Numbered from the stretch's first letter, positions 7,372 to 64,000 are shown. The stretch: 64,000 bases of DNA from Candidatus Fervidifonticultor sextus (GCA_031459875.1 JAVKHQ010000008.1:1-64000); one strand, 5' to 3'. The notes: generated from the letters alone by a model not told the origin. Program-made: numbers and translations.

Positions 7372-7393
7372 AGGAGCCACGGGGGAGGAGCCG

Positions 7394-8260: not shown

Positions 8261-8300
8261 ATCCTTCCGGTCCCAGCCGGGGACCGAATCGCGGCCTGAC

Positions 8301-8309
8301 TGATATACT
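8301..8309 (+). promoter_or_regulatory. Putative extended -10 element for the yvlD-rapZ-yvcK unit
   Basis: TGaTATACT about 40 bp upstream of GTG 8349, in a GC-rich background. Confidence 0.45.
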
Positions 8310-8348
8310 CAAGGGAGGTCAGTCAGGCTGCGTCGGGAGGAGAGGAGC

Positions 8349-8696
8349 GTGGTCGGCGGCTTCCTGGTCCGCTGGGTGTTCAACGCGATCGGCATCTATG
8401 TCGCCACCCGGGTGGTCCCGGGGCTCAGAGCCCCGGATCCGGGTGCCGTCCTGATCGCCGCATTGGTCCTGGGGCTGGTCAACGCCTCCATCCGCTGGGT
8501 CGTCCTGATTCTGACCCTGCCCTTCAACATCCTGACCCTGGGATTGTTCACGCTCGTGGTCAACGCCCTCATGCTTTACCTGGTGGCGGCCATCGTCCCG
8601 GCGTCGCTGCAGATCGCCTCGTTCTGGTCGGCCTTCTGGGGGGCGCTGCTCATTGCCATCGTCAGTACGGGCCTCAGCCACCTCGCCGGACGGTAG
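8349..8696 (+). CDS. YvlD-like 4-TM membrane protein (holin superfamily IV)
   Basis: ALVLGLVNA...LTLPFNILTLGLFTLVVNALML signature. Confidence 0.85.
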   Translation: MVGGFLVRWVFNAIGIYVATRVVPGLRAPDPGAVLIAALVLGLVNASIRWVVLILTLPFNILTLGLFTLVVNALMLYLVAAIVPASLQIASFWSAFWGALLIAIVSTGLSHLAGR

Positions 8697-47121: not shown

Positions 47122-48411
47122 ATGGCGGTCAGGGAGGAGACACTGAAGTCCTATGCGGGGCTGGTAGCCGATGATCCGCGCGAGTTTCGGGTTCATGGGT
47201 CCATCTATACCGATCCGGACCTCTTCGCCGTGGAGATGGAGCGCATCTTCGAGCGGTGCTGGGTCTACGTCGGGCACGAGTCAGAGGTGTCGGCGCCCGG
47301 CGACTACAAGACGGTGGTGGTGGGGACCCAGCCGCTGATCCTCACCCGCCACGAGGACGGACGCATCTACTGCTTCTACAACCGCTGCCGGCACCGCGGC
47401 GCCGTGGTCTGCCGGCAGGAGCGCGGGCACTCCAACTTCTTCCGCTGCCGCTACCACAACTGGGTCTACGCCAACAACGGCGCCCTGATCGGCATGGCCC
47501 AGAGCACGGGCTACCCTGACGACTTCGACAGGCGCGCCTACGGCCTGGTCCCCGTGGCGCGGCTGGAGAGTTACCGGGGGATGCTGTTCGTCAACCTGTC
47601 GGATCGGGGGCCCGGACTGGCCGAGCACCTGGCCCCCGTCCGCCGGTACATCGACTACTGGTTCGGGCGCTCTCCCGTCGAAGAGATCGAGGTCTGCTTG
47701 CCCCCCCATCGGTACGAGTATCCGGGCAACTGGAAACTGCAGGCCGAGAACGGGTCCGACGGCTATCACGGCAACTACGTGCACCTCTCGTGGCAGCGCG
47801 TCCTGGCGCTGGCAAGAGAGTCGACGGTGGAGGAAACCCAGCAGTACCGCCAGGCGGGGTGCACCCGGGGCCTGGCCAACGGCCACGGCGTCCTGGAGCG
47901 GCCGGGCAGCCTCAACCCCAACTCGAGCTGGACCGCCCGGATGATGCACCGCTACCCGGCCTACGCGGAGGCCATGCGCGCCCGATTCTCCGACGAGGAG
48001 CTGGTGGAGATTTCGGCACGGCGCAACATCTTCGTGTTCCCCAACCTCTACCTCTTCGAGACCCACTGCCGGGTGATCGTGCCCAGGGCGCCGGATCGGA
48101 CCGAGGTGCAGCTCTACGTGTACGCCCTGCGGGGCGTCCCCGACGCCATCAACGAAGGGCGGTTGCGGGGACACGAGCGGTTCTTCGGCCCGGCCGGGTT
48201 CGGGACGCCCGACGACATCGAGGTCTTCACGGAGGTCCAGACCGGGGTGCGGGCCCGCGGCGTCGAGTGGAACCTGCTCAACCGGGGCCAGCACCGGGAG
48301 CGGTTCGAAGCGGGCGAGTGGATCGGCCACACCACCGATGAGGCGCCGCAGCGGTCGCTGTACCGGCAGTGGCGGCGCATGATGGCGGACGGTGAGCGCG
48401 CCGATGTCTGA
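47122..48411 (+). CDS. Rieske ring-hydroxylating dioxygenase alpha subunit (benzoate/cumate-like class)
   Basis: NRCRHRG...CRYHNW; GNWKLQAENGSDGYHGNYVH; FFGPAGFGTPDDIEVF. Confidence 0.9.
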   Translation: MAVREETLKSYAGLVADDPREFRVHGSIYTDPDLFAVEMERIFERCWVYVGHESEVSAPGDYKTVVVGTQPLILTRHEDGRIYCFYNRCRHRGAVVCRQERGHSNFFRCRYHNWVYANNGALIGMAQSTGYPDDFDRRAYGLVPVARLESYRGMLFVNLSDRGPGLAEHLAPVRRYIDYWFGRSPVEEIEVCLPPHRYEYPGNWKLQAENGSDGYHGNYVHLSWQRVLALARESTVEETQQYRQAGCTRGLANGHGVLERPGSLNPNSSWTARMMHRYPAYAEAMRARFSDEELVEISARRNIFVFPNLYLFETHCRVIVPRAPDRTEVQLYVYALRGVPDAINEGRLRGHERFFGPAGFGTPDDIEVFTEVQTGVRARGVEWNLLNRGQHRERFEAGEWIGHTTDEAPQRSLYRQWRRMMADGERADV

Positions 48412-49409: not shown

Positions 49410-50525
49410 GTGAACGCCGGCGATCAGACGGTGCGGGCCGCGGTGACTCCTGCCCCGCTGGTCACCGAGGTCCGGGCCTTCCGCCTTCCGCCCGTGGGTG
49501 CCGACGACGGCCTGCTGGAGGTGGAGGCCTGCGGGCTGTGCGGGACCGACTGGGACTTCTACACGCGGCGTCGGGGCGCGCATCTGGGAGCGCTCATCCT
49601 CGGCCATGAGATCGTGGGCCGCGTCGCGGCCGTCGGCGAGCGGGCGGCCGCGCGGTGGGGGGTGGCGGAGGGTGACCGGGTGGCGGTCGAGGAGTTCCTC
49701 CCGTGCGGCCAGTGCGAGTTCTGTATCTCGGGCCGGCCCGCCCTGTGCGAGGCCACCGACTCGAGGTCTGAGCGGCCCTTCCTCCGCTACGGCGCCACTC
49801 CCATCGACGTGCCGCCGGCCTTGTGGGGCGGGTTTGGCGAGGTGCTCTACCTCCATCCGCGCGCGCTCGTCCACCGCCTCCCTCCCGAACTTTCGGCCGA
49901 TCTCGCGACCCTGTTCGTCCCGATCTCCAACGGCGTCCGCTGGGTGCGCAAGGATGGCCGCCTGCCGCGCGACGGGACGGTGGTCATCATCGGCCCGGGC
50001 GCCCACGGCCTGGGCTGTGTCGTGGCGGCCCGCGAGGGCGGGGCGGGGTGCGTGATCGTCGCGGGACGGACCCGCAGCCCGCGCCTCGACGCCGCTCGGG
50101 CCCTGGGGGCCGTGGGGCTGGAGGCTCAGGGGGCCGATCTCGTCGCCGCCGTGCGCGAGGTCACCGGCGGCGAGGGGGCCGATGTGGTCGTGGATCTGGC
50201 GCCGGGATCGTCGGACACCGTGGAGGTGGCCCTGCAGATCGCGCGCAAGGGCGCCACCGTGATCCTGGCCTCCTCGAAGCACGGCCGGCCCGTCGCCGGG
50301 TTCCAGAGCGACCTCGTCGTGCGCAAGGCCCTGACCGTGAGAGGGGTGCGGGGGCGTGACCCCCAGTCTGTGGAGGAGGCGCTCCGGATCCTCGGGTCCC
50401 GCCGCTACCCGCTGGAGCGGCTGCGCACCCACACGTTCCCGTTCACCCAGGCCGACCAGGCGCTCAGGGTCCTCGGGGAACGCACGGATCCTGCCGCGAT
50501 TCACGTTGCGGTCGTTCCCCGATGA
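49410..50525 (+). CDS. Zn-dependent medium-chain dehydrogenase
   Basis: CGLCGTD, GHE, CGQCEFC-x7-C structural Zn site, IGPGAHG. Confidence 0.9.
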   Translation: MNAGDQTVRAAVTPAPLVTEVRAFRLPPVGADDGLLEVEACGLCGTDWDFYTRRRGAHLGALILGHEIVGRVAAVGERAAARWGVAEGDRVAVEEFLPCGQCEFCISGRPALCEATDSRSERPFLRYGATPIDVPPALWGGFGEVLYLHPRALVHRLPPELSADLATLFVPISNGVRWVRKDGRLPRDGTVVIIGPGAHGLGCVVAAREGGAGCVIVAGRTRSPRLDAARALGAVGLEAQGADLVAAVREVTGGEGADVVVDLAPGSSDTVEVALQIARKGATVILASSKHGRPVAGFQSDLVVRKALTVRGVRGRDPQSVEEALRILGSRRYPLERLRTHTFPFTQADQALRVLGERTDPAAIHVAVVPR

Positions 50526-50615: not shown

Positions 50616-51182
50616 GTGTCGGTCAGCCTCAAGATGAAGGCGCCCCCCACCGACGAGGAGTTGCGGGAGCTGTCCGATCGCAACCCGGGGTATCAGTTCG
50701 AGCGGAGTGCCGCGGGGGAACTGATCGTGACGCCCACGGGGAGCAAGGCGGGGCGCCGGGAATTGCTCCTGGGGGTACAACTGGCCCGCTGGGCCGAGGC
50801 TGACGGCCGGGGCCTAGCCTTTGGCCCCTCCGCCGGGTTTCGTCTGCCCGACGGTTCAGTGCTGTCACCGGATGCGTCCTGGGTGCGTCGGGATCGCTGG
50901 GATTCCCTGGAGGCCGGGGCCCAGGAGGGGTTTGCCCCGTTGTGCCCCGACGCCGTGTTCGAGTGCGCGTCGCGCAGCGACGAACTGCCTGGCCTCCGGG
51001 CGAAGCTGCAGGTCTATCTGGCCAACGGGGCCCGCCTGGCCGTGCTCGTCGATCCGTACCGTCGCGCGGTGGAGATCTTCGAGCCTGGCCGCACCCCGCG
51101 GGTCGTCGAGCAGGCCCGCTCGGTCGCGTTCCCCTCCGTGCTTTCCGGCTTCGTCCTCGACCTCGAGCCGATCTTCGCGTAG
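50616..51182 (+). CDS. Uma2 family (DUF820) PD-(D/E)XK nuclease-like protein
   Basis: ERSAAGELIV.P, GFRLPDG..SPDASW, CPDAVFE..S.SD, YLANGARL..L.DP. TGaTAGAAT at 50577-50585. Confidence 0.88.
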   Translation: MSVSLKMKAPPTDEELRELSDRNPGYQFERSAAGELIVTPTGSKAGRRELLLGVQLARWAEADGRGLAFGPSAGFRLPDGSVLSPDASWVRRDRWDSLEAGAQEGFAPLCPDAVFECASRSDELPGLRAKLQVYLANGARLAVLVDPYRRAVEIFEPGRTPRVVEQARSVAFPSVLSGFVLDLEPIFA

Positions 51183-51193
51183 CCGGCGGCGGG

Positions 51194-52363
51194 GTGAGCC
51201 GGCTCCTCGGTCTCTACGTTCCCACCCTGGCCGTCAGCTTCGCCCAGGGGATGATCTTCCCCGCCGTCCCGGCCCTCGCCGGACACTTCGGCGTCTCCCC
51301 CGGCCTGGCGGCGCAGGTGGTGAGCGCCCAGATGGCGGGCCGCATGCTGGCCCTGCTGCCCGCCGGGGCCCTGGTGGACCGGTTGGGTCCCTGGATCGTG
51401 CTCCTCCTGGGATCCATCTTCATCGTGGCCGGGGGCGCCGGGTTGCTGCTCGCGCAGGCCTTCTGGGTGGTGTTGCTGGGTCAGGCCCTGGCCGGCGCCG
51501 GGAGCAGCCTCTGGACCGCGGGCCGCGAGATCGCCGGGCTCGGCCTGGTGCGCGCGGATCAGCGGGGCCGATTGATGAGCGGCTTCTTCGGTCTGCAGAC
51601 ACTGGGGCTGGCGGCGGGGCCGGTGGCGGGCGGCCTGGTCGTTGACGCGGCAGGCCTCCGAACCCTCTTTGCGCTCTTCGCAGGCGTCGGGGTGGCAGTC
51701 CTCGCCATCACCCTCCTGCTCGACCGGTCGGCCGCCAGGCCGCCGGCACGCACCGCACCGCTGGCGGCGATCCTCCACGGCTGGCGGGAGATCGCACCGG
51801 CCGACCGCGCGACATACGCCGTCCTCGTGCTGGCCACGTTCGCCATGAACGTGTACCGGACCAGCCTCAACAGCCTGCTGCCGGTGTACGCGGGCGCCTC
51901 GCTCGGCTTCCCCGCCGCCCGGGTTGGGGCGCTCTTCGGGATCATCAGCCTGGGCGTGCTGGTGATGATCGTGCCGTCCGGGCTCGTCCTGGACCGGGTG
52001 GGCCGGAAGTGGGGAGCCGTGCCGGCGGTGGCGGTTCCTGCTGTGGCCTTTGCGGTGTTGCCGCTGGCCCGGACCGGCCCGCACCTCGCGCTGCTGGCGG
52101 CCGCCCTCGGCCTGGCCAGCGGACTGTCGCTGGGCTCCATGTCCACGTTCAGTTACGACGTCATCCCCGAGCACGCGCGGGGGGTACTGCAGGCCCAGCG
52201 GCGGCTGCTCGGGGACCTGGGAGGGCTGGCCGGACCGATGGCCGGAGGCCTCCTGGCGGACGCCTACGGAGCCGAGATCGCGTTCCTGGCCTACGCGCCG
52301 CTGCTGGCGCTGGCCGCGCTCCTGCTGGCCTTCGGCGCCCGCGAGACGTTGGTCCGACGGTGA
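51194..52363 (+). CDS. MFS transporter
   Basis: About 12 TMs; motif A-like GALVDRLG and GLVLDRVGRK. Confidence 0.88.
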   Translation: MSRLLGLYVPTLAVSFAQGMIFPAVPALAGHFGVSPGLAAQVVSAQMAGRMLALLPAGALVDRLGPWIVLLLGSIFIVAGGAGLLLAQAFWVVLLGQALAGAGSSLWTAGREIAGLGLVRADQRGRLMSGFFGLQTLGLAAGPVAGGLVVDAAGLRTLFALFAGVGVAVLAITLLLDRSAARPPARTAPLAAILHGWREIAPADRATYAVLVLATFAMNVYRTSLNSLLPVYAGASLGFPAARVGALFGIISLGVLVMIVPSGLVLDRVGRKWGAVPAVAVPAVAFAVLPLARTGPHLALLAAALGLASGLSLGSMSTFSYDVIPEHARGVLQAQRRLLGDLGGLAGPMAGGLLADAYGAEIAFLAYAPLLALAALLLAFGARETLVRR

Positions 52364-52382: not shown

Positions 52383-53414
52383 CTACCGCGCCGCCTCGGC
52401 GCGCGTGCGTGCCGCGTACTCCGGTGCGTCCTCCAGGTAGACCACGGCGTCGTACCCGAGCAACTTGAACAGCCGGTTCTGCGCCGACAGCAGGACGAGC
52501 GGCCTCTGGGGGTCGGCGTTGACGTGCTGGTGGATGGTGTTGTGGGGCACGTAGAGCAGGTCGCCGGCGCCAAACTCCCACCGCGAGGGCTCCCGCGCCA
52601 CGCGGGCCATGTACCGTTCGCCGATCTCGGCCTCCACGTCCCAGTGCAGGCTGTAGCCGCGGCCCGACATGACGTAGATGGCCTCGTCGGCCATGTGCCA
52701 GTGCTTCGCCGACCGGCTCCCGCCCGGAATCTCCTGCTGGTAGATGTCGACGCTGAACACGCGGACGTCGGTCCGCTCGGGCGACGTCAGCACGCGGACC
52801 CGGCCGTCCCGGGTGATCTCCCAGCGCGTGTCCTGGGGTTTGACGACCTTCTTCCGCTCGGTGACGCCGGGCGTCCACAGGCGGCTCCAGTCCTCAGGCG
52901 GCCCGTATCGATCGCCGTCGGCGATCGGGCCCCCCCGGCCCTGTTGCACGAGGCCCAGGTACATCCAGGCGGCCTTGGCCTTGATGACGAGCGCGAGGGC
53001 CCGTCGGTCGGGGTCGGCGTTGTAGTGCCGGTGCACCGAGTCGTTGTGGACCACCACCAGGTCGTCCTGCTCCCAGTCGTACCGCTGGCCGTCGTGGATT
53101 TCGTAGCCGCGGCCTTCCAGGATGTAGAACGTCGCCTCGTTCTGGTGGCCGTGTCCCCGGTTGGACCCGCCGGGGAAGAGTTCCACGAAGTGCATCTGGA
53201 TGGTCTGGGTCAGAAAGGGGTCATCGCCCGGCCCGAGGATCCACCAGGTCCGCGACTGCGCCGAATCCGCCGAATGGGCCACGCGGGCGTCGTCCACCAC
53301 GGTGCCAGCCGGCCGGACTCGGGGCGCCGCACGCTGCCGCCGGCGGAACTCCGCGAGGCCGTACTGCTCGGCGCTGATGCCCCGGAGGAACACGCGCCCT
53401 TCGATCTCGCCCAC
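52383..53414 (-). CDS. Bicupin A (two intact metal motifs)
   Basis: GHGHQNEA.FYILEGRG...HRHYN and KHWHMADEA.YVMSGRG...HQHVN. Start GTG 53414 or 53417. Confidence 0.82.
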   Translation of the reverse strand: MGEIEGRVFLRGISAEQYGLAEFRRRQRAAPRVRPAGTVVDDARVAHSADSAQSRTWWILGPGDDPFLTQTIQMHFVELFPGGSNRGHGHQNEATFYILEGRGYEIHDGQRYDWEQDDLVVVHNDSVHRHYNADPDRRALALVIKAKAAWMYLGLVQQGRGGPIADGDRYGPPEDWSRLWTPGVTERKKVVKPQDTRWEITRDGRVRVLTSPERTDVRVFSVDIYQQEIPGGSRSAKHWHMADEAIYVMSGRGYSLHWDVEAEIGERYMARVAREPSRWEFGAGDLLYVPHNTIHQHVNADPQRPLVLLSAQNRLFKLLGYDAVVYLEDAPEYAARTRAEAAR

Positions 53415-53574
53415 CACCCCACCCCCCAAAAGACGGCTTTCGTCGGAACTACGGCGCCACCACGCCTCATCCCTCTGCGGGCGGGGCGTGTCGCGCCGGG
53501 GAGGGAACGGGGCCGGGGCGGAGTAGGAAAGGGCTGTTGTGCGCCGTGGGGGGCGTCCGGGGGGAGGCAGAAGG

Positions 53575-55332
53575 GTGTATCCGTCTGCGGCACAGTACGG
53601 GTCCGACCTCATCGTTGACCTCATGAAGGCCTACGGGATCGAGTACGCGGCCCTCAATCCCGGCGCGACCTTCAGGGGGCTCCACGACTCCATCGTCAAC
53701 TACGGCGGCAACCGGACCCCGGAGGTCATCCTCTGCCTCCACGAGGAGATCGCCGTGGCCATAGCCCAGGGCTACGCGAAGGCGGCGGGCCGTCCGATGG
53801 CCGCCATCGTGCACGACGTCGTGGGATTGCTCCATGCCGCCATGGCCATCTACACCGCCTGGCTCGACCGCACGCCCGTGCTGGTCATGGGCGGCACCGG
53901 GCCGATGGCGGTCGAGCACCGCCGGCCGTGGATCGACTGGATCCACACCGCGCTCGTGCAGGGCAACGTCGTCCGCGACTACGTCAAGTGGGACGACCAG
54001 CCCGCAAGCCTCCAGGGAATCGTGGAGTCGTTCATCCGAGGCTACCGGATCGCGACCACGGAGCCCCAGGGGCCGGTGTACCTGTGCTGGGACGCGGGGC
54101 TGCAGGAGCAGGCGCTCCAGGCACCCGTGCCGATTCCGCCGCTGGAACGCTACGGCCCGCCTGCGCGCACGCAGGCCGATCCGGCGGCGCTGCAGCACGC
54201 GGCCCGCTGGCTCGTCGAGGCGGAGCACCCGGTGGTCCTGGCCGACTACGTCGGGCGGAACCCCGATGCCGTGCCCGCGCTCGTGCGGCTCGCCGAGGCG
54301 CTGGCGCTTCCGGTCATCGACCTGGGCAGCCGCTTCAACTTTCCCAACACCCATCCTTTGGACCTCACAGGCGCCGAGGACGAACTCCTCCCGGAGGCCG
54401 ACGTCGTGCTGGCGCTGGACGTCTTCGACCTCCAGAAGGCCGTAGCGAGCACGGACCGCACGAGCCGCCTGGCCCGCTCACGGCTGCCCCACAGCGCGCG
54501 GATCGTGCACATCTCGTTCAACGACGTCATGGTCCGCAGTTGGGTGCAGGAGCAGGGGCGGCTGCAGCCCGTGGATCTCCCCATCGCCGCCGACACGTCG
54601 CTGGCGGTCCCCGCCCTTGCCGCCCTCGTCGAGCGCGCTGCGGGTGAGGATGCGGCCCTGCGGGCGCGGCGCGACCGCCGACGGGAGCGGCTGGAGCGCG
54701 CCCACCGCCGGCTGCAAGACGGGTGGCTCGCGGCCGCCGAGCGGGCACGGGACGACCGCCCGATTTCGCTCCCCCGGCTGGCTCTGGACCTCTGGGACGT
54801 CGTGCGCGACCTGGACTGGGTCCTGGTCAACCGCACCCTGCGGGGCTGGACGCGCCGGCTATGGGCCTGGACCACGGCGACGCCCTACCTCGGCACCCAC
54901 CTGGGCGGCGGCGTCGGCTACGGCCTGGGCCACGCCATCGGCGCCGCGCTGGCGCTGGGCGGCAGTCGGCTGTGCATCGATCTCCAGCCCGACGGCGACC
55001 TGCTCTACACCCCCAGCGCCCTGTGGACGGCGGCGCACCACCGGATCCCGCTGCTGGTCGTGATGTTCAACAACCGGACGTACTACAACGACGAGGAGCA
55101 CCAGATCCTGATGGCCCGCGCCCGCGGCCGGCCGGTCGAGCGGGCCCACATCGGCCTGGCCATGAAGGACCCGCCGGTGGACTTCGCGGGGTTGGCCCGC
55201 TCGTTCGGGGTCGAGGCCTGGGGACCGGTGGAGGAGCCCGGGGACCTGAAGCCGGCGCTGGAGCGCGCGGTGCGTCATGTGCTGCGCGAGCGGAGGCCGG
55301 CGCTGGTGGACGTCGTCATGCAGAACAGGTAG
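53575..55332 (+). CDS. ThDP-dependent enzyme (benzoylformate decarboxylase/acetolactate synthase-like family)
   Basis: YGSD..NPGATFRGLHDS, CLHEE (catalytic Glu), PQGPVY, GDLLY...MFNNRTY (GDG-like...NN motif, here PDGD). Start 53539 or 53575. Confidence 0.88.
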   Translation: MYPSAAQYGSDLIVDLMKAYGIEYAALNPGATFRGLHDSIVNYGGNRTPEVILCLHEEIAVAIAQGYAKAAGRPMAAIVHDVVGLLHAAMAIYTAWLDRTPVLVMGGTGPMAVEHRRPWIDWIHTALVQGNVVRDYVKWDDQPASLQGIVESFIRGYRIATTEPQGPVYLCWDAGLQEQALQAPVPIPPLERYGPPARTQADPAALQHAARWLVEAEHPVVLADYVGRNPDAVPALVRLAEALALPVIDLGSRFNFPNTHPLDLTGAEDELLPEADVVLALDVFDLQKAVASTDRTSRLARSRLPHSARIVHISFNDVMVRSWVQEQGRLQPVDLPIAADTSLAVPALAALVERAAGEDAALRARRDRRRERLERAHRRLQDGWLAAAERARDDRPISLPRLALDLWDVVRDLDWVLVNRTLRGWTRRLWAWTTATPYLGTHLGGGVGYGLGHAIGAALALGGSRLCIDLQPDGDLLYTPSALWTAAHHRIPLLVVMFNNRTYYNDEEHQILMARARGRPVERAHIGLAMKDPPVDFAGLARSFGVEAWGPVEEPGDLKPALERAVRHVLRERRPALVDVVMQNR

Positions 55333-55347
55333 AGGAGGGAGATCCAC

Positions 55348-56964
55348 GTGCCACCATCACTGCGCAACCGGGGCGGGGGCCGCAGCCCGCTGTTCGCCGC
55401 GCTGCGCCAGGCGGTCCGGGTGGCGGGAGCGGCCAACGTGCCGGGGGCGCCTCCGGTCGACGAACTCCTTGGGCTGCGCCTGGAGCGGCTCACCCGACGG
55501 CGCTTCCTGAAGGCGGCCATGGCCGCCGCCGCGGCGGTTGGCGTGCAGGGGGTGGCCGGCCGTCTGGGCGCCGACGTGGCGGCCGCGGCCCCGGCGGCCC
55601 CGCGCGTGGTGATCGTCGGCGGCGGCATCGCAGGTCTCCAGGCCGCCTACCGGCTGCGCCGGGCGGGGATCCGTGCCCTCGTCTACGACGCGGCGACCCG
55701 CACCGGGGGAAGGATCCGCTCGGCCGCCAACGCCATTGCGCCGGAACTGGTGACGGAATTCGGCGGTGAGTTCATCAACAGCGATCACGAGGATGTGCTG
55801 GCGCTGGCCAGAGAGTTCGGGCTCGACCTGATGGACATGGAGGCTCCCGGCGAGGCACACCTGGAGGAGGCGTATTTCTTCGACGGCCGGCACCGGCGCG
55901 AGGCGGAAGTGGTCAACGCCTTCCGGCCGGTCGCCGAACGCATCGCGGCGGATGCCGATCGACTGGGGGATCGCATTGACTTCCGCACCCCTGGCCCGGC
56001 GGTGCGGCTCGACCGGATGTCGCTGGCGGAGTACCTGCGCCGCATCGGCGCCACGGGATGGTTGGGGGCGCTATTGGAGGTCGCGTACGTGACCGAGTTC
56101 GGGCTCGACGCAGCCGAGCAGTCGGCGTTGAACTTCATCACCCTGGTGGGGACCGACCTGCGCGAGGGCTTCAGGATTGTGGGAGACAGCGACGAGCGCT
56201 ACAAGGTGCGGGGCGGCAACCAGCAGATCGCAGACGCCCTGGCCAGGCGCCTGGACGGTCAGATCGAACTCGGCCACCGTCTCGTCGGGCTGCGCGCGCG
56301 GGGCCGGGGCTACCTGCTCTCGTTCGAGCGCCGCGGCAGCGGGGTCACGGACGTGGCCGCCGACGTGGTGATTCTGGCGGTGCCCTTCACCATGGTGCGC
56401 GAGGTTGACCTCCGTGTGGAGCTGCCCTCCCACAAGTGGAAGGCGATTCGCGAACTCGGGTACGGGACCAACGCGAAATTGATGCAGGGGCTGCTGGAGC
56501 GGCCCTGGCGCGCGCGTGGATACTCGGGCGCGGCCTACTCCGACGCGGGATTCCAGTTGTGTTGGGACAACAGCCGCGGGCAGTCCGGGCCGGTCGGCGG
56601 CATCACCCTGTACTTTGGAGGGCACCTTGGGCTGGAGGTCGGCCGGGGATCTGCCGACGACCAGATGACCCGCCTGCTGCCGGGCGTGGACCGCGTCTTT
56701 CGGGGCGTGGCCGATGCCCGCGCCGGCCGGGCCGTGCGCTGGCACTGGCCCACCTATCCGTTCACGAAGGGCAGCTACGCCTGCTACAAGCCCGGACAGT
56801 GGACCGGCATCCGGGGGGCCGAAGGGGTTCCCGTGGGGAACCTGTTCTTCGCCGGCGAGCACTGCAGCTACGACTACCAGGGCTACATGAACGGCGGCGC
56901 GGAGTCCGGCCGCCTCGCCGCGCAGGCGGTGCTGCGCCGCCTCGGGCTCCAGCGGGCAAGTTAG
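55348..56964 (+). CDS. Flavin monoamine oxidase family protein with a Tat-like motif
   Basis: TRRRFLK plus hydrophobic segment, IVGGGIAGL, TGGRI, FGGEFI, FAGEHCS...GYMNGGAESG. Confidence 0.88.
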   Translation: MPPSLRNRGGGRSPLFAALRQAVRVAGAANVPGAPPVDELLGLRLERLTRRRFLKAAMAAAAAVGVQGVAGRLGADVAAAAPAAPRVVIVGGGIAGLQAAYRLRRAGIRALVYDAATRTGGRIRSAANAIAPELVTEFGGEFINSDHEDVLALAREFGLDLMDMEAPGEAHLEEAYFFDGRHRREAEVVNAFRPVAERIAADADRLGDRIDFRTPGPAVRLDRMSLAEYLRRIGATGWLGALLEVAYVTEFGLDAAEQSALNFITLVGTDLREGFRIVGDSDERYKVRGGNQQIADALARRLDGQIELGHRLVGLRARGRGYLLSFERRGSGVTDVAADVVILAVPFTMVREVDLRVELPSHKWKAIRELGYGTNAKLMQGLLERPWRARGYSGAAYSDAGFQLCWDNSRGQSGPVGGITLYFGGHLGLEVGRGSADDQMTRLLPGVDRVFRGVADARAGRAVRWHWPTYPFTKGSYACYKPGQWTGIRGAEGVPVGNLFFAGEHCSYDYQGYMNGGAESGRLAAQAVLRRLGLQRAS

Positions 56965-57284
56965 GGGAGGTGCCGTCCCTGCAGGAGGGCCCCGGCCGAC
57001 CATCCGCCGAGCATCAGGGCGATGCGGACTCCGATGAGCAGCCAGCCGACGGCAACGATGATCCAGGCGATCCGTCGGGCGACCCCTGCCAGGATGACGA
57101 ACAGCGTGAGGACCGCCAGGAATCCCACGGGATCGACCAGGTCGGCGGGAATCGAAGCCTGAGGGACCACCCGCTGGATGGCCGCCACGATCGCCTCGCC
57201 CAGCGCGCGGGCGAGCGTGGAGGTGAACTGCAAGACCTTGCTGAGCAGTTCACCGCCAGCCTGCGCCAGCCTCACCGTCTCCAT
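56961..57284 (-). CDS. Small hypothetical membrane protein
   Basis: GGAGGG RBS before ATG 57284; two TM helices (DPVGFLAVLTLFVIL; IAWIIVAVGWLLI). Confidence 0.6.
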   Translation of the reverse strand: METVRLAQAGGELLSKVLQFTSTLARALGEAIVAAIQRVVPQASIPADLVDPVGFLAVLTLFVILAGVARRIAWIIVAVGWLLIGVRIALMLGGWSAGALLQGRHLP

Positions 57285-57333
57285 GGTGCCAGAGCCCTCC
57301 CCGCACCGCCCGGAGGCTGCGGGTCGGCGTGGA

Positions 57334-58821
57334 CTAGCGGAACACGAGACTCTTGACCACGACCGGCACCACGCCCTGGTCTGGCAGCGGCCGGCCGATG
57401 TCGACGTAGTCGAACTCCCGCAGCAGGACCTGGTCGATGCACACCAGAGCGCCGGTGACCCCGAACTCCTGCTGCAGCAGCGCCCCGACGAGACCGGCGA
57501 CGTCGGCATCCACCACCAGGAGCAGCGGATGGCCGTTCCTGAGCTGAGGCAGGGCCGCCACGATGCCCGCGCACAGTTCCCGCAGCGACGCGTAGTCCGC
57601 GCCGTGGTGCCAGTGCACCGCCAGCGCGAAGGGGCCGTCTTCGCCGCCGGTCAGGTCGAGGCGCGCCAGGGCCCCGCGGACCGCCTGCGCGATGGCCGCC
57701 GCGGGCGGCGCCGCACGGCGCAGGCGGGCCACGGGGACGCTCCGCAGCGGCAGCACCTGCGGGTGCGACAGGAAGATCGTATCCCCGCTCAACTGCACCG
57801 TGTACTGCGACGCCCCGATGCAGGTGGCCCGGATTGCCTCGAGGGGCTCCTGCAGGGCGATCCTGAGTTCCCCGGCCCGGCGCCGCAGGGCCGCGGCCAG
57901 GCGGGGGCCCAGGTCACCGAACTCCTGCTGCTCGCGTCCGTAGACGTACTCGGCCACGCCGCCGGAGAAGACGATGCGGCGATAGGGCGGCGCCGCCAGG
58001 AGGGGCTCGGTGATCCACAGGTCGGTGTCGCGGGCGCCCATGGCGATCCCCAGGACGATCTCGGCCATGTGCGAGGCGAGTCGGTCCAGCGCCTCGGGCG
58101 GGAGGCGGTCAGCGGGCATCGGGACGCGCGAGCCCTCGCTGCGGCTGATGCCCGCCTCCACGGCCAGCCGCCGGCCGGCCTCCTCAAGGCGGGTGAGCCG
58201 CCCGTCGGCGTCCCAGGCCAGCAGCCGGGCGCCCAGGTGGATCGCCCCCGTTTGCTCCACCTGGCCGGCCCGGCAGACGGCAAACTTCGTCGTGCCGCCG
58301 CCGATGTCGACGTTCAGCAACGGCTCCTCGTCGTCCTGGGAGAACTCCACCGCGCCCGACCCGTGGGCGGCGAGCAGGCTCTCCAGGTTCGGCCCGGCGG
58401 TGGCGCACACGAACCTGCCGACCTCCCGTGCGAAGAGCTCACCGATGGCGCGGGCGTTCTCGCGCCGGGCCGCCTCGCCCGTGGTGATCACCGCGCCCGC
58501 ATCGATGTCGTCTGGCAGGGCGCCCGCGTCGGTGTAGGTGGCGTTGATGAATCCGCCCAGGGCGGCCGCGTCGATCGCCCCCGAGGGCGCATACGGCGTG
58601 AAGATCACCGGCGAGCGGAACAGGATCGCCCGCTCCGTGACCGCAAAGCGGCTGGAGAGCCGGCGTCCCTGCCGCTCGAGCACCAGCCTCGAGAAGACCA
58701 TGTGGGAGGTCGAGGTGCCGATGTCGACACCGACGCTGCGCAGCACGACGCGCTCGCCGACGTAGACGGCCGCCCCGTCTTCCCCGTCGAGGTGAATGTG
58801 GTCCTCGTCGAATTCGTGCAT
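57334..58821 (-). CDS. EutA-like ASKHA-fold ATPase (ethanolamine ammonia-lyase reactivase homolog)
   Basis: SVGVDIGTSTSHMVFS, GAVITTGEAARRENA, FVCATAGPNLES.LAAHGSG, NVDIGGGTT, FSGGV, IRATCIGASQYT..LSG.TI, DYVDIG, VPVVVKSLVF. Confidence 0.88.
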   Translation of the reverse strand: MHEFDEDHIHLDGEDGAAVYVGERVVLRSVGVDIGTSTSHMVFSRLVLERQGRRLSSRFAVTERAILFRSPVIFTPYAPSGAIDAAALGGFINATYTDAGALPDDIDAGAVITTGEAARRENARAIGELFAREVGRFVCATAGPNLESLLAAHGSGAVEFSQDDEEPLLNVDIGGGTTKFAVCRAGQVEQTGAIHLGARLLAWDADGRLTRLEEAGRRLAVEAGISRSEGSRVPMPADRLPPEALDRLASHMAEIVLGIAMGARDTDLWITEPLLAAPPYRRIVFSGGVAEYVYGREQQEFGDLGPRLAAALRRRAGELRIALQEPLEAIRATCIGASQYTVQLSGDTIFLSHPQVLPLRSVPVARLRRAAPPAAAIAQAVRGALARLDLTGGEDGPFALAVHWHHGADYASLRELCAGIVAALPQLRNGHPLLLVVDADVAGLVGALLQQEFGVTGALVCIDQVLLREFDYVDIGRPLPDQGVVPVVVKSLVFR

Positions 58822-58824
58822 CCG

Positions 58825-59931
58825 CTACCCTGCCGTCCGCGCGAAGAACTCGTCCATCCTGACCTCGACCCCGTTGGCCCGGCAGCGTTCCACGAACAGC
58901 CGGTGGATCCGGGGGTCCTGGTCGGCGTACTCGATCTGGTTGCCGCCCGCCCGTGCGCTCTTGTCAATCCCCTGGTGGTCCAGGTAGCGGGTGAGCTTCC
59001 ACCTCGTGCTCCCCCAGCGGATGGCCAGGTACCGGGCCGGCGTGGGGCCGGTGTTGAAGTGCTGATGCCACCACATGCCCGGCGGAACCAGCATCGTGCC
59101 CGGCTTCCAGGGGATCTCCTCGAAGGTCTCGTGCTGGTCGGTCCACATGAGCGTGTGGCCCCGGCCGTAGAGGATCACCACATGGGCGCCGGGACCGTGG
59201 CGGTGCGCCTTCTTGTAGGTTCCCACGGGGAACTCAGAGGTGTGCGCCACCAGCATGTTGTTCGCCAGTTCGAACTTCACGTGCTTCCCGCCGGCCCCCC
59301 GCTCGGGCCACTCATAGAGGGGAAGCCGGTAGACGTCGGCGACGAAATTCGTCTCCCAGATGCGCTGCGCGCTCTGCGGACGGACGTAGAGCGGGCCCGA
59401 TCCGCTGAAGTAGTCGGCCTGGCCGTGGAAGCGGTCGGTGAAATCATACGGGCAGTTGAAGATGAACTCGAGGTTGCGCAGCAGGCTGATCATCAACGGC
59501 GCCGTCGTCACCGCCAGCAGCCGCGCCGGCTCCTGCCCCGAGCCGTTGTGCAGCCGGTGGAAGGTGTTCAACGGGATGGCAAACAGACTGCCGCGCTGCC
59601 ACTCGAAGGTCTGCCGCGCGCCGGCCTGGTTCCACACCTCCGTCGTCCCCCGGCCGCCGAGGACGAAGAAGACCTCCTCGAAGAGGTGTCGTTCCGGGGC
59701 CGTGGAGGCGGCCGGGCCCACCTCCAGGACGTAGGCGTTGTCGGTGTCCTCGGTGCCCAGCAACTGGATGTAGCTCCCGCGGGCCTCCAGCCGGGGCCAC
59801 GGCGCCACCTCGACGGTCGTCAGGTCGTCTATGGCCAGCCCGGAGACCACGGGGAGCTGTTCGCGCTCCAGAAACGCCCGGTAGCCGCTCTGGCCCCACT
59901 CCGCTGGAAGCGGAAGGGTCTCCTCCCCCAT
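58825..59931 (-). CDS. Bicupin B
   Basis: ERHLFEEVFFVLGGRG...IPLNTFHRLHN and YKKAHRHGPGAH...PPGMWWHQHFN; stop 3 nt before the EutA-like start. Confidence 0.85.
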   Translation of the reverse strand: MGEETLPLPAEWGQSGYRAFLEREQLPVVSGLAIDDLTTVEVAPWPRLEARGSYIQLLGTEDTDNAYVLEVGPAASTAPERHLFEEVFFVLGGRGTTEVWNQAGARQTFEWQRGSLFAIPLNTFHRLHNGSGQEPARLLAVTTAPLMISLLRNLEFIFNCPYDFTDRFHGQADYFSGSGPLYVRPQSAQRIWETNFVADVYRLPLYEWPERGAGGKHVKFELANNMLVAHTSEFPVGTYKKAHRHGPGAHVVILYGRGHTLMWTDQHETFEEIPWKPGTMLVPPGMWWHQHFNTGPTPARYLAIRWGSTRWKLTRYLDHQGIDKSARAGGNQIEYADQDPRIHRLFVERCRANGVEVRMDEFFARTAG

Positions 59932-60083
59932 GGCTGTCTCACCCCCCGGTTCGGCTCTCCCGCCAGCATACACAATGGCACCCTCCTCTGCCAGCCCGGG
60001 GCAGGGGCAGGCAGGAGGACAGGCCGGCGGAGGGAAATAGCGGGGAACAAACGCCGGAAACCAGAACTTGGGGGGGTTCTGTG

Positions 60084-61085
60084 ATGCGGACGGTCCTTGC
60101 CTTCCTGCTGGCGGTGCTCCTGGGGGCGACCGCGGCCCCGGCGTGGGCCCAGGCGACGTTTGCGGGCAAGACGGTCACCATCATCGTGGGCTATCCGCCG
60201 GGCGGCGGCTACGACGTGATGGCCCGCATGGTGGCCCGCCACCTGCCCCGGTTCCTGCCGGGCGGCCCCACGGTGATCGTCCAGAACATGCCCGGCGCGA
60301 ACAGCATCGTCGCTGCCAATCATGTCTTCCACGTGGCCAGGCCCGATGGATTGACGCTCGGGCTCTTCAACCGCAACCTCGTGCTGGGCCAGCTCGTCAA
60401 GGTGGAAGGGATCCGGTTCGATATGGCGCGCTTCGGCTGGGTGGGGAGCCCGGCCACCGAGACGACCATCCTGGCCATCCGGGCCGATCTCCCCTACCGG
60501 ACGCCCGCCGACCTGCGCCGCGCCGACCCGGCGGTCGTCGTGGGCGCCACCGGGCCGGGGGCCAGCACCTACGACTTCCCGTTGCTGCTCAAGGCCTTCG
60601 TTGGGATGAATCTCCGGATCATCAGCGGCTACCGTTCCTCAGGCGACATCATGCTGGCCATCGAGCGGAAGGAGGCCGATGGCCGCGCCGGGTCCTACTC
60701 GTCCATCAAGCCGTTCATCGACCGCGGCCTGGTGCGCCCCATCGTGCGGGGCCACGCCTCCGTCCCGGCGATCGAGCGGCTGCCGGTCGACGAAGATCTG
60801 AGCGAGGATCCGCGGGCGAAGGCCGTGATGCGCCTGCGCTCGGTCCCCGAGGTCGTGGGCCGGCCCTTTGTGGTGCCGCCGGCCACCCCGGCGGAGTTCG
60901 TGGACGCCTACCGGGAGGCGTTCCGGCGGATGACGGCGGATCGTGAGTTCCTGGCGGAGGCGGAGCGGGCAGGCTTCGAGATCAAGCTCACGCCGGGGGA
61001 TCAGGCGCTGCGGACCATCCGCGAGGTGCTGGGCGCGCCCCCTGACGTGATCAGGGTCTTCAGCCAGTTCTATAAGTTCGACTGA
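60084..61085 (+). CDS. Tripartite tricarboxylate transporter substrate-binding protein (TctC/Bug)
   Basis: Signal peptide, IIVGYPPGGGYD..AR, VQNMPGA, PDGLT. Confidence 0.9.
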   Translation: MRTVLAFLLAVLLGATAAPAWAQATFAGKTVTIIVGYPPGGGYDVMARMVARHLPRFLPGGPTVIVQNMPGANSIVAANHVFHVARPDGLTLGLFNRNLVLGQLVKVEGIRFDMARFGWVGSPATETTILAIRADLPYRTPADLRRADPAVVVGATGPGASTYDFPLLLKAFVGMNLRIISGYRSSGDIMLAIERKEADGRAGSYSSIKPFIDRGLVRPIVRGHASVPAIERLPVDEDLSEDPRAKAVMRLRSVPEVVGRPFVVPPATPAEFVDAYREAFRRMTADREFLAEAERAGFEIKLTPGDQALRTIREVLGAPPDVIRVFSQFYKFD

Positions 61086-61098
61086 CCCAGGCCGGGAC

Positions 61099-62607
61099 GT
61101 GCTGGTCGAGGCCTTCCTCAGGGCCTTCCTCGAGGTAATGCGGTGGGACGTCCTGAGCTTTATGCTCATCGGCGTCATCGCGGGCTTCTGGGTGGGGCTC
61201 CTGCCGGGCCTGGGCGGGGGGACCACGCTGGCCCTGATGCTGCCGTTCGTGTACCGGATGCAGCCGGTCGAAGCCTTCGCCTTTCTGCTGGGCATGCACT
61301 CGGTGGTGGCGACCACCGGTGACATCACCTCCATCCTCTTCGGGATTCCCGGCGAGGGGACCACGGCTGCCACGATTCTCGACGGCCATGCCATGGCCAA
61401 GAAGGGAGAGGCCGGCCGGGCGCTGGGGGCGGCCCTGGCCAGTTCCCTCGTCGGCGCGATCGTCGGTGCCGGGGCCCTGCTGTTGGCCATCCCCGTGGTG
61501 CGTCCGCTGGTCCTCACCTTCGGCTCGCCCGAACTGTTCATGCTGGCCGTGCTCGGCATTGCGTTCATCGCCTCGCTGAGCGGCCGCAGACCCCGGGCGA
61601 TGCTCCGCGGCTTCCTGGCCGGGGCCCTGGGTCTGCTGCTGGCTGCGGTCGGCCAGGACCCCCAGGCGGGCAACTTCCGCTACACGCTCGGCTCCCTCTA
61701 CCTCTGGGACGGACTCGATCTGGTCCCGGTTCTGGTCGGGTTCTTCGCCATCCCGGAGATCATCGATCTGGCCGTCCGCGGCACCGCCATCGCCGGCGAC
61801 ACCCCGATCGGCCGGCTGGCGGGCGTGGCCACCGGCATCCGGGACACCTTCAGGCACTTCTGGCTCACCATCCGCTGCAGCATCATCGGCACCTACATCG
61901 GCGTCATCCCCGGACTTGGCGGGGGGGTGGCCCAGTGGGTCGCCTACGCCCACGCCGTGCAGAGCGCGCGCCCGGGGGCCGATCGGGATGGGTTCGGCAA
62001 GGGGGACGTGCGGGGCGTGCTGGGGCCGGGTGCCGCCAACAACTCGAAGGAGGGAGGCGCCCTCGTCCCGACCATCGCCTTCGGCGTGCCGGGAAGCTCG
62101 GCAATGGCGATCCTGCTGGGTGCCTTTCTCCTGGTCGGCCTGACACCCGGCCCGGACATGCTGACCAAGCACCTGAACGTGACGCTGGCCATGGTCTGGA
62201 CCATCGTGCTCGCCAACGTGGTCGCGGTGGGCGGGAGTCTGGTCTTCCTCAACCACCTGGCCCGGCTCACCGCGATCCGCGGCGCGCTGCTGATTCCGTT
62301 CCTCGTGCTGCTCACCTTCGTCGGCGCCTACACGGCCAACAACAGCCCCGGCGACATGGCCGTGATGTTGCTCTTCGGCGGGCTGGGTTACCTGATGGTG
62401 CGGTTTCACTGGCCGCGGGCCCCGCTGGTGTTGGGCTTCGTCCTCGGCGAGATCGCGGAGCGCTACCTGTGGATCTCGGTGGCGCGCTACGGCGCGGCCT
62501 GGCTGGGCCGGCCCGTGGTCGTCGCGCTGCTCCTGCTGACCGTCGGCGTCATCGCATCCGCGCTGGTCCAGTACCGCCGGGTCGCGATCGGGGAGGCGCC
62601 GCCGTGA
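61099..62607 (+). CDS. Tripartite tricarboxylate transporter large permease TctA
   Basis: GLLPGLG, ILFGIPG, DGHAMAKKGEAGRAL, GVIPGLG, AANNS, AFGVPGS, PGP. Confidence 0.92.
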   Translation: MLVEAFLRAFLEVMRWDVLSFMLIGVIAGFWVGLLPGLGGGTTLALMLPFVYRMQPVEAFAFLLGMHSVVATTGDITSILFGIPGEGTTAATILDGHAMAKKGEAGRALGAALASSLVGAIVGAGALLLAIPVVRPLVLTFGSPELFMLAVLGIAFIASLSGRRPRAMLRGFLAGALGLLLAAVGQDPQAGNFRYTLGSLYLWDGLDLVPVLVGFFAIPEIIDLAVRGTAIAGDTPIGRLAGVATGIRDTFRHFWLTIRCSIIGTYIGVIPGLGGGVAQWVAYAHAVQSARPGADRDGFGKGDVRGVLGPGAANNSKEGGALVPTIAFGVPGSSAMAILLGAFLLVGLTPGPDMLTKHLNVTLAMVWTIVLANVVAVGGSLVFLNHLARLTAIRGALLIPFLVLLTFVGAYTANNSPGDMAVMLLFGGLGYLMVRFHWPRAPLVLGFVLGEIAERYLWISVARYGAAWLGRPVVVALLLLTVGVIASALVQYRRVAIGEAPP

Positions 62608-63092
62608 GGCGGCCCGGCCGGCCGGCCGGCCGCGTCGTCTTTGCCGGCGGCGTTGCCCTGCTGGCGGCGTGGGCTCTGGCGCAGACGACGGGGTGGCCCA
62701 TCAAGACGGCACTCTACCCGCGCGTCGTCGGAATTCCCCTGCTGGCGCTGGCGATCGCAGAAACGGTGCTCAGCCTGCGCGGACGCGAGGAGGAGCCCCG
62801 TGAGGCGGTTGACGTGACGCTATCCACCGAGGTCCCCCCCAGGGTCGCCGGGCGCCGGACGGCCGCCGTCATCGCCTGGATGGGAGGCTTCTACCTGGGG
62901 GTGCTCCTGCTCGGCTTTCCCCGGGCCGTCCCGCTCTTCGTCTTCGCCTACCTGCGCATTCAGGCAGGGGAGTCATGGGTCACCGCGCTGCTCCTGGCGG
63001 CGTCTGCCTGGCTGGGCTTCACCCTCCTGTTCGTCAACCTGCTGCACGTCCCGTTCGCGGATGGGATCTTCTGGAGGCTCTTCGTGCCATGA
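62604..63092 (+). CDS. Tripartite tricarboxylate transporter small permease TctB
   Basis: GTG overlapping the tctA stop; about 4 TMs, LYPR, LLGF, LF..LL.VP...G. Confidence 0.82.
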   Translation: MRRPGRPAGRVVFAGGVALLAAWALAQTTGWPIKTALYPRVVGIPLLALAIAETVLSLRGREEEPREAVDVTLSTEVPPRVAGRRTAAVIAWMGGFYLGVLLLGFPRAVPLFVFAYLRIQAGESWVTALLLAASAWLGFTLLFVNLLHVPFADGIFWRLFVP

Positions 63093-63122
63093 ACGCCCGC
63101 AGTTGGGCTCGAGGGGATGGGG

Positions 63123-64000
63123 ATGGCCAGCGCCTGGCGTGAGCCGTCCGGAGACGAGCGCGCCGGGTTCGGCCGATGGAAGCGCCCACCTTCGCCCTAC
63201 GATGTCTTTATGGAGGCCGAAGGCGTCCCGATCTACCGTGGCATCGGGGTGCGTCGGGTGCAGGACCTTCCGCTGGGCCCCTGGCGGCGGATGGGCGGGC
63301 GGGGGACGTTCATCCAGTTGTACGGGACCGAAGGCCTCTGGGGGGCCTACGTGGTCGAGATCCCTCCGGCCGGGGCGCTGGCAGTGGAGCGCCACCTCTA
63401 CGAAGAGGTCGTCTTCGTCGTGGAGGGACGGGGTGCCGCCGAGGTGTGGGCGCGAGACGGCGCCGGATCCGAGATCGTCGAGTGGCAGCCCGGGTCGCTG
63501 TTCACCATTCCGCTGAACACGTACCACCGGCTGATCAACGCCATGTCCTCCGGACCGGCGCTCCTCCTGGTGGGCACCACGGCGCCGACGGTGCTGAACC
63601 TCTTTGGGGATGCCGGGTTCGTCTTCAACTGCCCGTATAGCTTCCTCGACCGGTACGATGGGGCGGAGGGCTACTTCAAGGCCCATCTCCAGGACATCGA
63701 ACCGGACCCGCACCGGGGGCTCGCCATGGTGCGGACGAACATCGTCCCCAACGCCATCACCTGTCCGCTGCCGCTGGACAACCGCCGCTCGCCGGGCTTC
63801 CGGCGCCTGGAGCCCCACCTGGATCGAAATGTCTTCTACCTCTGGATCGGCCAGCACGAGCCGGGCCGGTATTCGAAAGCGCACGCCCACGAGTCGGCGG
63901 CGGTCCTGATCTGCCTGGCGGGCAAGGGGTACACCTACGCCTGGCCCCGCGAGGTGGGCACCCGGCCCTGGGAGAGCGGGCAGTCCCACCGGGTCGTGCG
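63123..64000 (+). CDS. Bicupin C (partial, runs off right edge; paralog of bicupin B)
   Basis: Not in the ORF track. Manual translation: SPYDVFMEAEGVPIYRG...PWRRMGGRGTFIQLYG...ERHLYEEVVFVVEGRG...IPLNTYHRLIN...YSKAHAHESAAVLICLAGKGYT. Confidence 0.85.
   Translation, partial: MASAWREPSGDERAGFGRWKRPPSPYDVFMEAEGVPIYRGIGVRRVQDLPLGPWRRMGGRGTFIQLYGTEGLWGAYVVEIPPAGALAVERHLYEEVVFVVEGRGAAEVWARDGAGSEIVEWQPGSLFTIPLNTYHRLINAMSSGPALLLVGTTAPTVLNLFGDAGFVFNCPYSFLDRYDGAEGYFKAHLQDIEPDPHRGLAMVRTNIVPNAITCPLPLDNRRSPGFRRLEPHLDRNVFYLWIGQHEPGRYSKAHAHESAAVLICLAGKGYTYAWPREVGTRPWESGQSHRVV

Follow-up and report, generated by a model that had tools for sequence, protein, structure and literature searches.

Introduction

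What does a EutA-like ATPase do in a genome that encodes no ethanolamine ammonia-lyase? The only known clients of EutA-type reactivases are B12 enzymes, canonical EutA freeing dead cobalamin from the lyase EutBC. The question arises from a locus in Candidatus Fervidifonticultor sextus (GCA_031459875.1 JAVKHQ010000008.1:1-64000; this whole stretch of 64,000 nucleotides is referred to as the window), where the gene for a EutA-like ATPase of the ASKHA type (57334-58821, minus strand, 495 aa) adjoins that of a bicupin, hereafter bicupin B (58825-59931, minus strand, 368 aa), with two further bicupins, A and C, in the vicinity. An earlier sequence-only reading of the locus had suggested that the ATPase was repurposed as an activase, a metal chaperone or a catalytic partner of the cupins.

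The comparative analyses presented here support such a repurposing by the conserved linkage of the two genes, in the following called the module, and by the position of the protein in a clade of its own, and they favour the first two of the three roles. Our preferred interpretation, which we hold with moderate confidence, is that the EutA-like protein is an ATP-driven accessory factor loading, exchanging or restoring the metal of a four-histidine site in the bicupin. Its clients are probably the bicupin encoded just upstream and the two nearby paralogous bicupins.

A EutA homologue outside the canonical EutA group

Because the G+C content of the region is about 70%, a family match was required before any gene was accepted, and the gene map was built from Pfam and NCBIfam scans. 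The sequence-only reading had described a full-length EutA homologue at 57334-58821 which starts 3 nt after bicupin B, and all parts of this description were confirmed: PF06277 matches with 399.7 bits against a cut-off of 27 over profile positions 3-474 of 475, both phosphate motifs (DIGTST and DIGGGT) are present, and the stop codon TAG of bicupin B (58825-58827) is followed by 3 nt and then by the ATG of the EutA-like gene. PF06277 is the sole Pfam family in the protein, which is 36% identical to E. coli EutA (b2451) over residues 27-494. Among 50 homologues the residues of the phosphate-1, phosphate-2 and adenosine motifs (D33, G35, D172, G174-176 and G287-288) are invariant, and no conserved cysteine was found. 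The AlphaFold2 (AF2) model of the ATPase has a predicted local distance difference test (pLDDT) value of 88.9, with residues 1-18 disordered. Foldseek relates this model to generic ASKHA folds (Ppx/GppA, HgdC-type activators, MreB and ROK kinases) at a template modelling (TM) score of about 0.3, and no sequence match was obtained among solved structures at E up to 1. About 800 representatives of a 50%-identity library match at E <=1e-30, the best 150 all being full-length relatives, and the nearest database proteins are labelled as metagenome-assembled genomes (MAGs) of Armatimonadota.

The protein stays below all four NCBIfam EutA equivalog cut-offs, the best score being 312 bits against 598 for NF007992. 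EutB (PF06751), EutC (PF05985) and bacterial microcompartment (BMC) shell proteins (PF00936), whose genes the sequence-only reading had found missing from the window, have no match anywhere in the genome (3.05 Mb, 67 contigs, 96.2% complete), which contains a single EutA-family gene and three B12-binding domains, each on contigs other than that of the window. EutB is also missing from all 94 genomes of the phylum sample, which represent one order, and E. coli EutB, EutC and EutQ gave no match within any of 124 loci.

As references, six EutAs were chosen (E. coli, Listeria, C. difficile, Cetobacterium and two haloarchaea), each encoded beside or near eutBC in the same eut cluster. In a tree of 94 rows, comprising 88 clade members and these six (quick IQ-TREE run, LG+G4), a branch with 100% SH-aLRT support divides the six EutBC-linked EutAs from the clade members, the window protein included, and the few ATPases without linkage to a bicupin nest within cupin-linked groups. 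Judged by these comparisons, the EutA-like protein is not an ethanolamine-lyase reactivase.

As a separate observation, PF06277 also matches in four control genomes (Bacillus subtilis, Caulobacter vibrioides, Thermus thermophilus and Deinococcus radiodurans), none of which is matched by EutB.

Conserved linkage of ATPase and bicupin

A linkage of EutA and cupin in other genomes, on which the sequence-only reading had made its proposal depend, was found in both samples drawn. Thirty loci were compared in the phylum, the window's own included. In 29 of them an ortholog of bicupin B (53-96% identity) lies directly upstream on the same strand; the one exception breaks off at a contig end. The ATPase occurs in 35 of the 94 genomes, and all 35 have the bicupin B ortholog as well; the ortholog was detected without the ATPase in only two further genomes, both with truncated matches. 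In two loci (L011 and L032; G056:C228 and G074:C98) the matches to bicupin B or the ATPase are split in two pieces, which suggests frameshifts or assembly errors in those MAGs.

The wider sample was obtained by a pattern scan with one genome per species and confirmation by tblastn, and comprises 80 loci from Chloroflexota (including SAR202 and Dehalococcoidia), Alpha-, Beta-, Gamma- and Deltaproteobacteria, Methylomirabilota, Binatia, Acidobacteriota, Actinomycetota, Verrucomicrobiia and the cultured Alicyclobacillus herbarius. A B- or C-type bicupin is located within 400 bp and on the same strand as the ATPase in 64 of the 80 loci, 59 times upstream and five times downstream, C-type bicupins being the neighbours in the alphaproteobacterial loci L067, L105, L125 and L128. 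De novo clustering of open reading frames (ORFs) placed a member of the bicupin family within 7 kb of the ATPase in 70 loci. No third universal partner, for instance a small reactivase subunit, was found in the 80 loci, where no other gene family reaches 33; three ORF clusters, with 79, 66 and 33 loci, overlap with genes of the ATPase or the bicupin and were taken, without a Pfam check, as opposite-strand ORFs (79 and 66) and an alternative frame (33). After the two partners, TctC ranks highest (26 loci), ahead of TctA (23), the major facilitator superfamily (MFS; 17) and dienelactone hydrolase (10), and class II aldolases, thiamine diphosphate (ThDP) enzymes, IclR regulators, molybdenum hydroxylases, UbiD and amidohydrolase_2 appear in six to eight loci each.

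The ratio of the two partners was examined in five genomes chosen because one of their ATPase copies is unlinked from any bicupin. Matches to the bicupin family and full-length ATPases numbered 29 and about 3 in G094, 15 and about 3 in G095, 17 and about 3 in G096, 32 and about 9-10 in G097, and 3 and about 3 in G098. Tandem arrays of six bicupins (G095:C1:2110387-2117679) and eight bicupins (G096:C1:93758-102497) in two Chloroflexota genomes, those of loci L102 and L118, have no ATPase alongside over their whole length. The unlinked ATPase copies have housekeeping genes as neighbours. One is flanked by PrmA/RsmE and a MiaB-like radical-SAM gene (L094:5102-9871), and those of L102 and L118 come just after the glutamyl-tRNA synthetase (GluRS) gene (around 5259-8500), a setting which suggests constitutive expression of a shared helper; the remaining copies in these five genomes do adjoin bicupins. 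As bicupins outnumber ATPases, a shared accessory factor fits better than an obligate catalytic subunit, and the window, with three bicupins and one ATPase, displays the same pattern on a small scale.

The bicupins

The likely start of bicupin B is the ATG at 59931, with a purine-rich stretch upstream. Bicupin C is its paralogue with about 38% identity, bicupin A a distant one with about 20%, and an HxH...HQH signature is common to all three. In the alignment of 31 family members (A3), H244, H246, H290 and H292 are invariant and H251 is nearly so. The bicupin row of this alignment begins one codon 5' of the ATG and thus carries an extra Ala, so that residue numbers taken from the alignment, the bicupin model or the complex described below are higher by one (+1) than those of the 368-aa protein. 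All invariant histidines lie in the C-terminal barrel within the motif HRHGPGAH...WWHQHFN, the metal ligands of the N-terminal barrel are less conserved in the 31 members, and a GGxQIEY motif near the C-terminus is invariant.

The bicupin would most likely be an oxygenase comparable to the gentisate and salicylate dioxygenases, at considerable distance from the characterised members. Identity of bicupin B to gentisate and salicylate 1,2-dioxygenases (PDB 2phd, 3bu7 and 2d40) amounts to 13-16%, and sequences with solved structures gave weak single-barrel matches only. It scores 35.5 bits on NF049978 (5-aminosalicylate dioxygenase) against a cut-off of 650, with TIGR02272 not among its matches, and bicupin A reaches 18.5 bits on TIGR02272 (gentisate dioxygenase) against a cut-off of 442. 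Foldseek searches with the bicupin model returned generic bicupins at a TM score of about 0.5, and the ESM Atlas unnamed 'cupin domain' clusters only. The gentisate and salicylate 1,2-dioxygenases are bicupin Fe(II) enzymes that cleave aromatic rings. Their active site is located in the N-terminal barrel, whereas the histidine cluster of the module bicupin is in the C-terminal one, and no ATPase is known to be required by these dioxygenases.

The N-terminal extension and the nickel permeases

The His/acidic N-terminal extension to which the sequence-only reading had drawn attention proved to be widespread in the clade. In the window the EutA-like protein starts with MHEFDEDHIHLDGED and thus with M-H-E; across the clade, the extension ahead of the ASKHA core measures 25-45 residues and is rich in His, Asp and Glu, as in MHDEPWAHVHDPDE, MHDFPHPHEHGDHEGD and HDHDHD runs. 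The six canonical EutAs lack it, having only 7-12 residues ahead of the core with no or one histidine. The start codon is followed by His and then by Asp or Glu in 51 of 82 ORFs, the usual form being MH[DE]xxxxHxH, and most of the others carry runs like HDHDHD. Conservation of His2 reaches at least 90% among 50 sequences with 34-80% identity to the query, and phyla whose proteins share 40-45% overall identity retain the MH[DE]xxxxHxH pattern.

According to a review, the nickel chaperone HypA binds Ni(II) with its first three residues, M-H-E, by way of the N-terminal amine and of His2, whose replacement by Ala abolishes function (PMC7055735). The likeness of the EutA-like protein to HypA is one of a common motif and not of homology.

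Genes for NicO/HoxN nickel/cobalt permeases are found beside the module in three unrelated lineages. In Alicyclobacillus herbarius, an IclR gene, a Rieske oxygenase gene with a LigXa-type domain, the bicupin gene, the EutA-like gene and NicO are all on one strand. In Phyllobacterium, HoxN and NikR adjoin the bicupin/EutA-like pair, as they do in L125; in Phyllobacterium zundukense a Rieske oxygenase gene is followed by those for ferredoxin, class II aldolase, cupin and 'EutA', and then by a divergent HoxN/NixA permease and NikR. This core recurs in Sinorhizobium terangae, and the replicons on which cultured rhizobia carry the pair are large. Within family f4 of the phylum, eight of 12 genomes with the module have a strong NicO match (E <1e-90) on the same contig, 2-6 kb from the module.

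Apart from these, weak NicO-like small membrane genes (31-34 bits) were noticed adjoining C-type bicupins in three places (G002:C45:32349-32840, G055:C3:2075-2632 and G056:C123:2766-3407); none lies beside bicupin C in the window.

Predicted complex of ATPase and bicupin B

A complex of the ATPase and bicupin B was modelled from our own alignments of 50 and 31 rows, respectively. The ipSAE score had a median of 0.62 (0.67, 0.47 and 0.62 in the three runs) against 0.00 in all three controls, the pLDDT of the partners was at least 87, and at least 55% of the contacts were common to the runs. When this score was calibrated, 116 of 157 solved complexes and two of 215 mismatched pairs attained the mark, counts that hold only roughly here because the alignments were user-made. 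The predicted interface comprises, on the ATPase side, the C-terminal alpha/beta domain (residues 346-348, 407-413, 439-452, 463-464 and 481-483) and, on the bicupin side, the N-terminal barrel (75-77, 95-99, 109-116, 129-134, 176-177 and 199-205, in the +1 numbering of A3). The model supports a binding of the ATPase to the bicupin, as far as such a prediction reaches.

Discussion

Gene coupling, co-occurrence, the separate clade, the predicted interface, the tail motif and the permease neighbours were all computed. The evidence leans towards a metal chaperone or activase over a catalytic partner, because of the His-rich tail starting with M-H-E, the NicO/NikR neighbours and the excess of bicupins over ATPases. 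The mechanism could then be pictured as follows. The C-terminal alpha/beta domain of the ATPase would dock on the bicupin, and binding and hydrolysis of ATP in the ASKHA core would open or reset this client, much as canonical EutA does in ridding EutBC of dead cobalamin. The flexible His/acidic M-H-E tail might then deliver or exchange the divalent metal of the four-histidine site in the C-terminal barrel of the bicupin. From the computed results we infer binding in vivo, the use of ATP, the metal, the substrate, and whether a metal would be loaded or the enzyme reactivated. As to the metal, nickel or cobalt is proposed only tentatively and as a weaker part of the argument, iron or manganese being possible too. 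With equal reserve it may be suggested that the cupin-linked EutA clade constitutes a new class of metallochaperones, in which an ASKHA ATP-driven insertase or exchange factor with a HypA-like tail loads nickel or another divalent metal into a large, hitherto unstudied family of bicupin oxygenases with four histidines.

Several results weigh against a role of the ATPase as metal-loading accessory factor. No NicO-family permease was found in the window's own genome, and adjacency of NicO is a minority character, seen in four of the 80 loci and in one family of the phylum. The alphaproteobacterial subclade of Phyllobacterium, with the clearest HoxN/NikR neighbours, has no His tail, so that tail and nickel do not always go together. 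The predicted docking takes place on the N-terminal barrel of the bicupin (75-205) and not on the barrel with the invariant histidine cluster (243-291), and since the ATPase tail is disordered, the model is silent on a hand-over of metal. Residues of the bicupin interface are barely more conserved than the rest (9 of 25 against 108 of 369 overall, at 90% conservation or more), and those of the ATPase interface (4 of 24 against 84 of 495 at the same level) display no enrichment worth claiming. Of the ten loci without a nearby bicupin, only three are cut by contig ends and seven have flanking DNA. The 80 loci are the best matches to the clade, so the sampling of the tree is biased towards it, and intermediate EutA lineages are unsampled because the rows were chosen as best matches to the cupin-linked clade. 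Finally, no description of, or experiment on, any member of the module was found in the full-text literature, from whose coverage most subscription journals are excluded; where EutA is named alongside a cupin there, the ectoine gene or the canonical factor is meant and not the module.

An alternative to a shared accessory factor is an ATP-dependent two-component enzyme made up of the bicupin and the EutA-like protein, which might phosphorylate, carboxylate or activate in some other way an aromatic or organic acid. Acetate kinase, hydantoinase and acetone carboxylase are examples of ASKHA enzymes that do work as catalysts with ATP, and the coupling of the genes over 3 nt, their strict co-occurrence, the predicted complex, the intact ATPase motifs and the presence of the module in catabolic clusters that also contain genes of the decarboxylase type (class II aldolase family, UbiD, amidohydrolase_2) would all agree with a catalytic partnership. 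We nevertheless regard it as unlikely, since bicupins exceed ATPases 3- to 10-fold in four of the five genomes counted and occur in arrays without an adjoining ATPase, and since some ATPase copies lie among the housekeeping genes GluRS, PrmA, RsmE and MiaB-like. Moreover, the disordered His-rich tail and the nickel-permease neighbours would have no obvious role in such an enzyme, and EutA, the one relative that has been characterised, acts as an exchange factor in the manner of a chaperone and is no kinase.

The protein might, on the other hand, act independently of any metal as an Hsp70-like chaperone for folding or assembly which is specific to the bicupin, its His tail being incidental low-complexity sequence. 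The ASKHA fold is related to both Hsp70-type and activator ATPases, the predicted interface is on the folded N-terminal barrel away from the histidine cluster, and the subclade without the tail retains the bicupin linkage, all of which would agree with a folding chaperone. An incidental tail is hard to reconcile with the conservation of His2 at 90% or more and with a MH[DE]xxxxHxH pattern that is kept across phyla, nor would recurrent NicO/NikR neighbours in three lineages be expected, and we consider this explanation improbable.

That the protein is an ordinary EutA-type reactivase for a B12 enzyme encoded elsewhere, with the cupin as a coincidental neighbour, is most improbable in spite of the full-length homology to EutA with 36% identity to the E. 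coli protein and of three B12-binding domains on other contigs, since EutB and EutC are missing from the genome and EutB from all 94 phylum genomes, the bicupin linkage is kept in 29/30 and 64/80 loci, the clade is separate from EutBC-linked EutAs and every NCBIfam EutA equivalog cut-off is missed.

Comparison with known systems places the proposed metal-loading factor between several families. With canonical EutA the EutA-like protein shares the family, the full-length architecture, the retained ATPase motifs and a position beside the gene of its presumed client; it differs in its bicupin neighbour, the lack of EutBC, the separate clade, the scores below cut-off and the tail of 25-45 residues. 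The diol and glycerol dehydratase reactivases DdrAB, PduGH and GdrAB are ASKHA-type ATPases encoded beside their clients, which exchange a damaged cofactor in an ATP/ADP cycle, and they provide the mechanistic template for what is proposed here. Their clients are B12 enzymes and they possess a small second subunit, whereas the EutA-like protein has no Pfam match to their family and no conserved small partner gene was found in the 80 loci. HypA, which serves [NiFe]-hydrogenase and urease together with HypB, has the M-H-E start in common with the EutA-like protein; in both cases a nucleotide-hydrolysing partner drives, or would drive, the delivery of metal, and nickel permeases lie near the module in some genomes. 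Fold and family of HypA are unrelated, and its zinc CxxC...CxxC domain is absent from the EutA-like protein, in which Pfam recognises EutA only. Unlike HypA/HypB, the EutA-like protein would unite the motif and the nucleoside triphosphatase in one polypeptide and have a cupin as client, the likeness being one of motif.

If the proposal is true, a large clade would serve cupin metalloenzymes, and the concept of ATP-driven cofactor exchange would extend beyond cobalamin to simple metal centres. A widespread mis-annotation would be put right as well, namely of genes named 'ethanolamine ammonia-lyase reactivating factor EutA' in genomes without an ethanolamine lyase. The partner bicupins are abundant in Chloroflexota of soil, groundwater and marine habitats, with up to 32 copies per genome, and as they occur in aromatic-degradation clusters, the reactions they catalyse matter for how lignin-derived and recalcitrant organic matter is turned over. 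Should the metal be nickel, a new family of nickel enzymes would be at hand together with a route of nickel delivery unrelated to the G3E GTPase and CooC systems.

Genomic setting of the module

The further bicupins, the ThDP gene and TctCAB, which the sequence-only reading had placed around the EutA-like gene, were recovered by Pfam and NCBIfam, and the genes it had listed are real; its list had missed one gene, a flavin amine oxidase, and its start for bicupin C (63123) corresponds to the second Met, the gene beginning at 63117. At lower coordinates than the module, the plus strand carries a Rieske ring-hydroxylating oxygenase alpha subunit (47122-48411; PF00355 and PF00848) and, both accepted on family matches, a Zn-dependent alcohol dehydrogenase (49410-50525) and an MFS transporter (50942-52363). 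Bicupin A (52383-53414) is on the minus strand with a GTG start and is followed on the plus strand by a PRK08327-like, benzoylformate-decarboxylase-like ThDP-dependent enzyme (53539-55332, family match) and by the amine oxidase (55348-56964; PF01593, 170 bits). On the other side of the module, divergent from bicupin B, the genes TctC (60081-61085; PF03401, 37 bits), TctA (61099-62607; PF01970, 402.6 bits) and TctB (about 62604-63092; PF07331, 37.7 bits), all above cut-off and on the plus strand, constitute one cluster for a tripartite tricarboxylate transporter (TTT) at 60081-63092. Bicupin C (63117-64346, plus strand, 409 aa) extends past the window end at 64000.

Further 3' on the same contig, a class II aldolase-family gene, which has 3,4-dihydroxyphthalate decarboxylase among its best named relatives, is followed in order by pcaH, pcaG, a CoA-transferase gene and pcaB. 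These genes lie directly past the window. By its gene content, the locus is an aromatic-acid catabolic island, with the protocatechuate branch of the beta-ketoadipate pathway at its end. The context of Rieske oxygenase, alcohol dehydrogenase, class II aldolase-type decarboxylase, pcaHG, pcaB, TTT and MFS genes points to a hydroxylated aromatic carboxylate as the substrate of the bicupin. A hydroxylated aromatic acid might enter through the TTT or MFS transporters and be acted on by the bicupin, and the product would drain to the protocatechuate/beta-ketoadipate genes next door. A supply by the TTT system, as assumed in the sequence-only reading, is thus plausible at this locus but not general, given the counts for TctC and TctA in the 80 loci.

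Several of these neighbours recur elsewhere. TctCAB is kept beside the module in the phylum families f1, f3 and f5, and a ThDP enzyme is a frequent, though not constant, companion (L033-L035, L037, L043, L044, L046, L047, L048, L057 and L085). Homologues of the Zn-dependent alcohol dehydrogenase are located near the module in L038-L040, L046, L052, L060 and L109, Rieske oxygenases flank it in L109, L125, L128 and L129, and orthologs of bicupin A lie nearby in L039, L040, L046, L052 and L060, with a 46% match in L109.

The amine oxidase gene separates the ThDP gene from the EutA-like gene, and its GTG at 55348 is preceded by a good ribosome-binding site. As the gene is missing at that place in a genome of the same genus (G004), it is regarded as lying outside the conserved unit and as local context only. 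Its N-terminus is rich in Arg and might be a Tat signal. About 7 kb past the window (contig about 71012-72592; L002:9013-10593), an ATP-dependent DNA ligase with all three ligase domains is encoded next to a DUF488 gene and is unrelated to the module.

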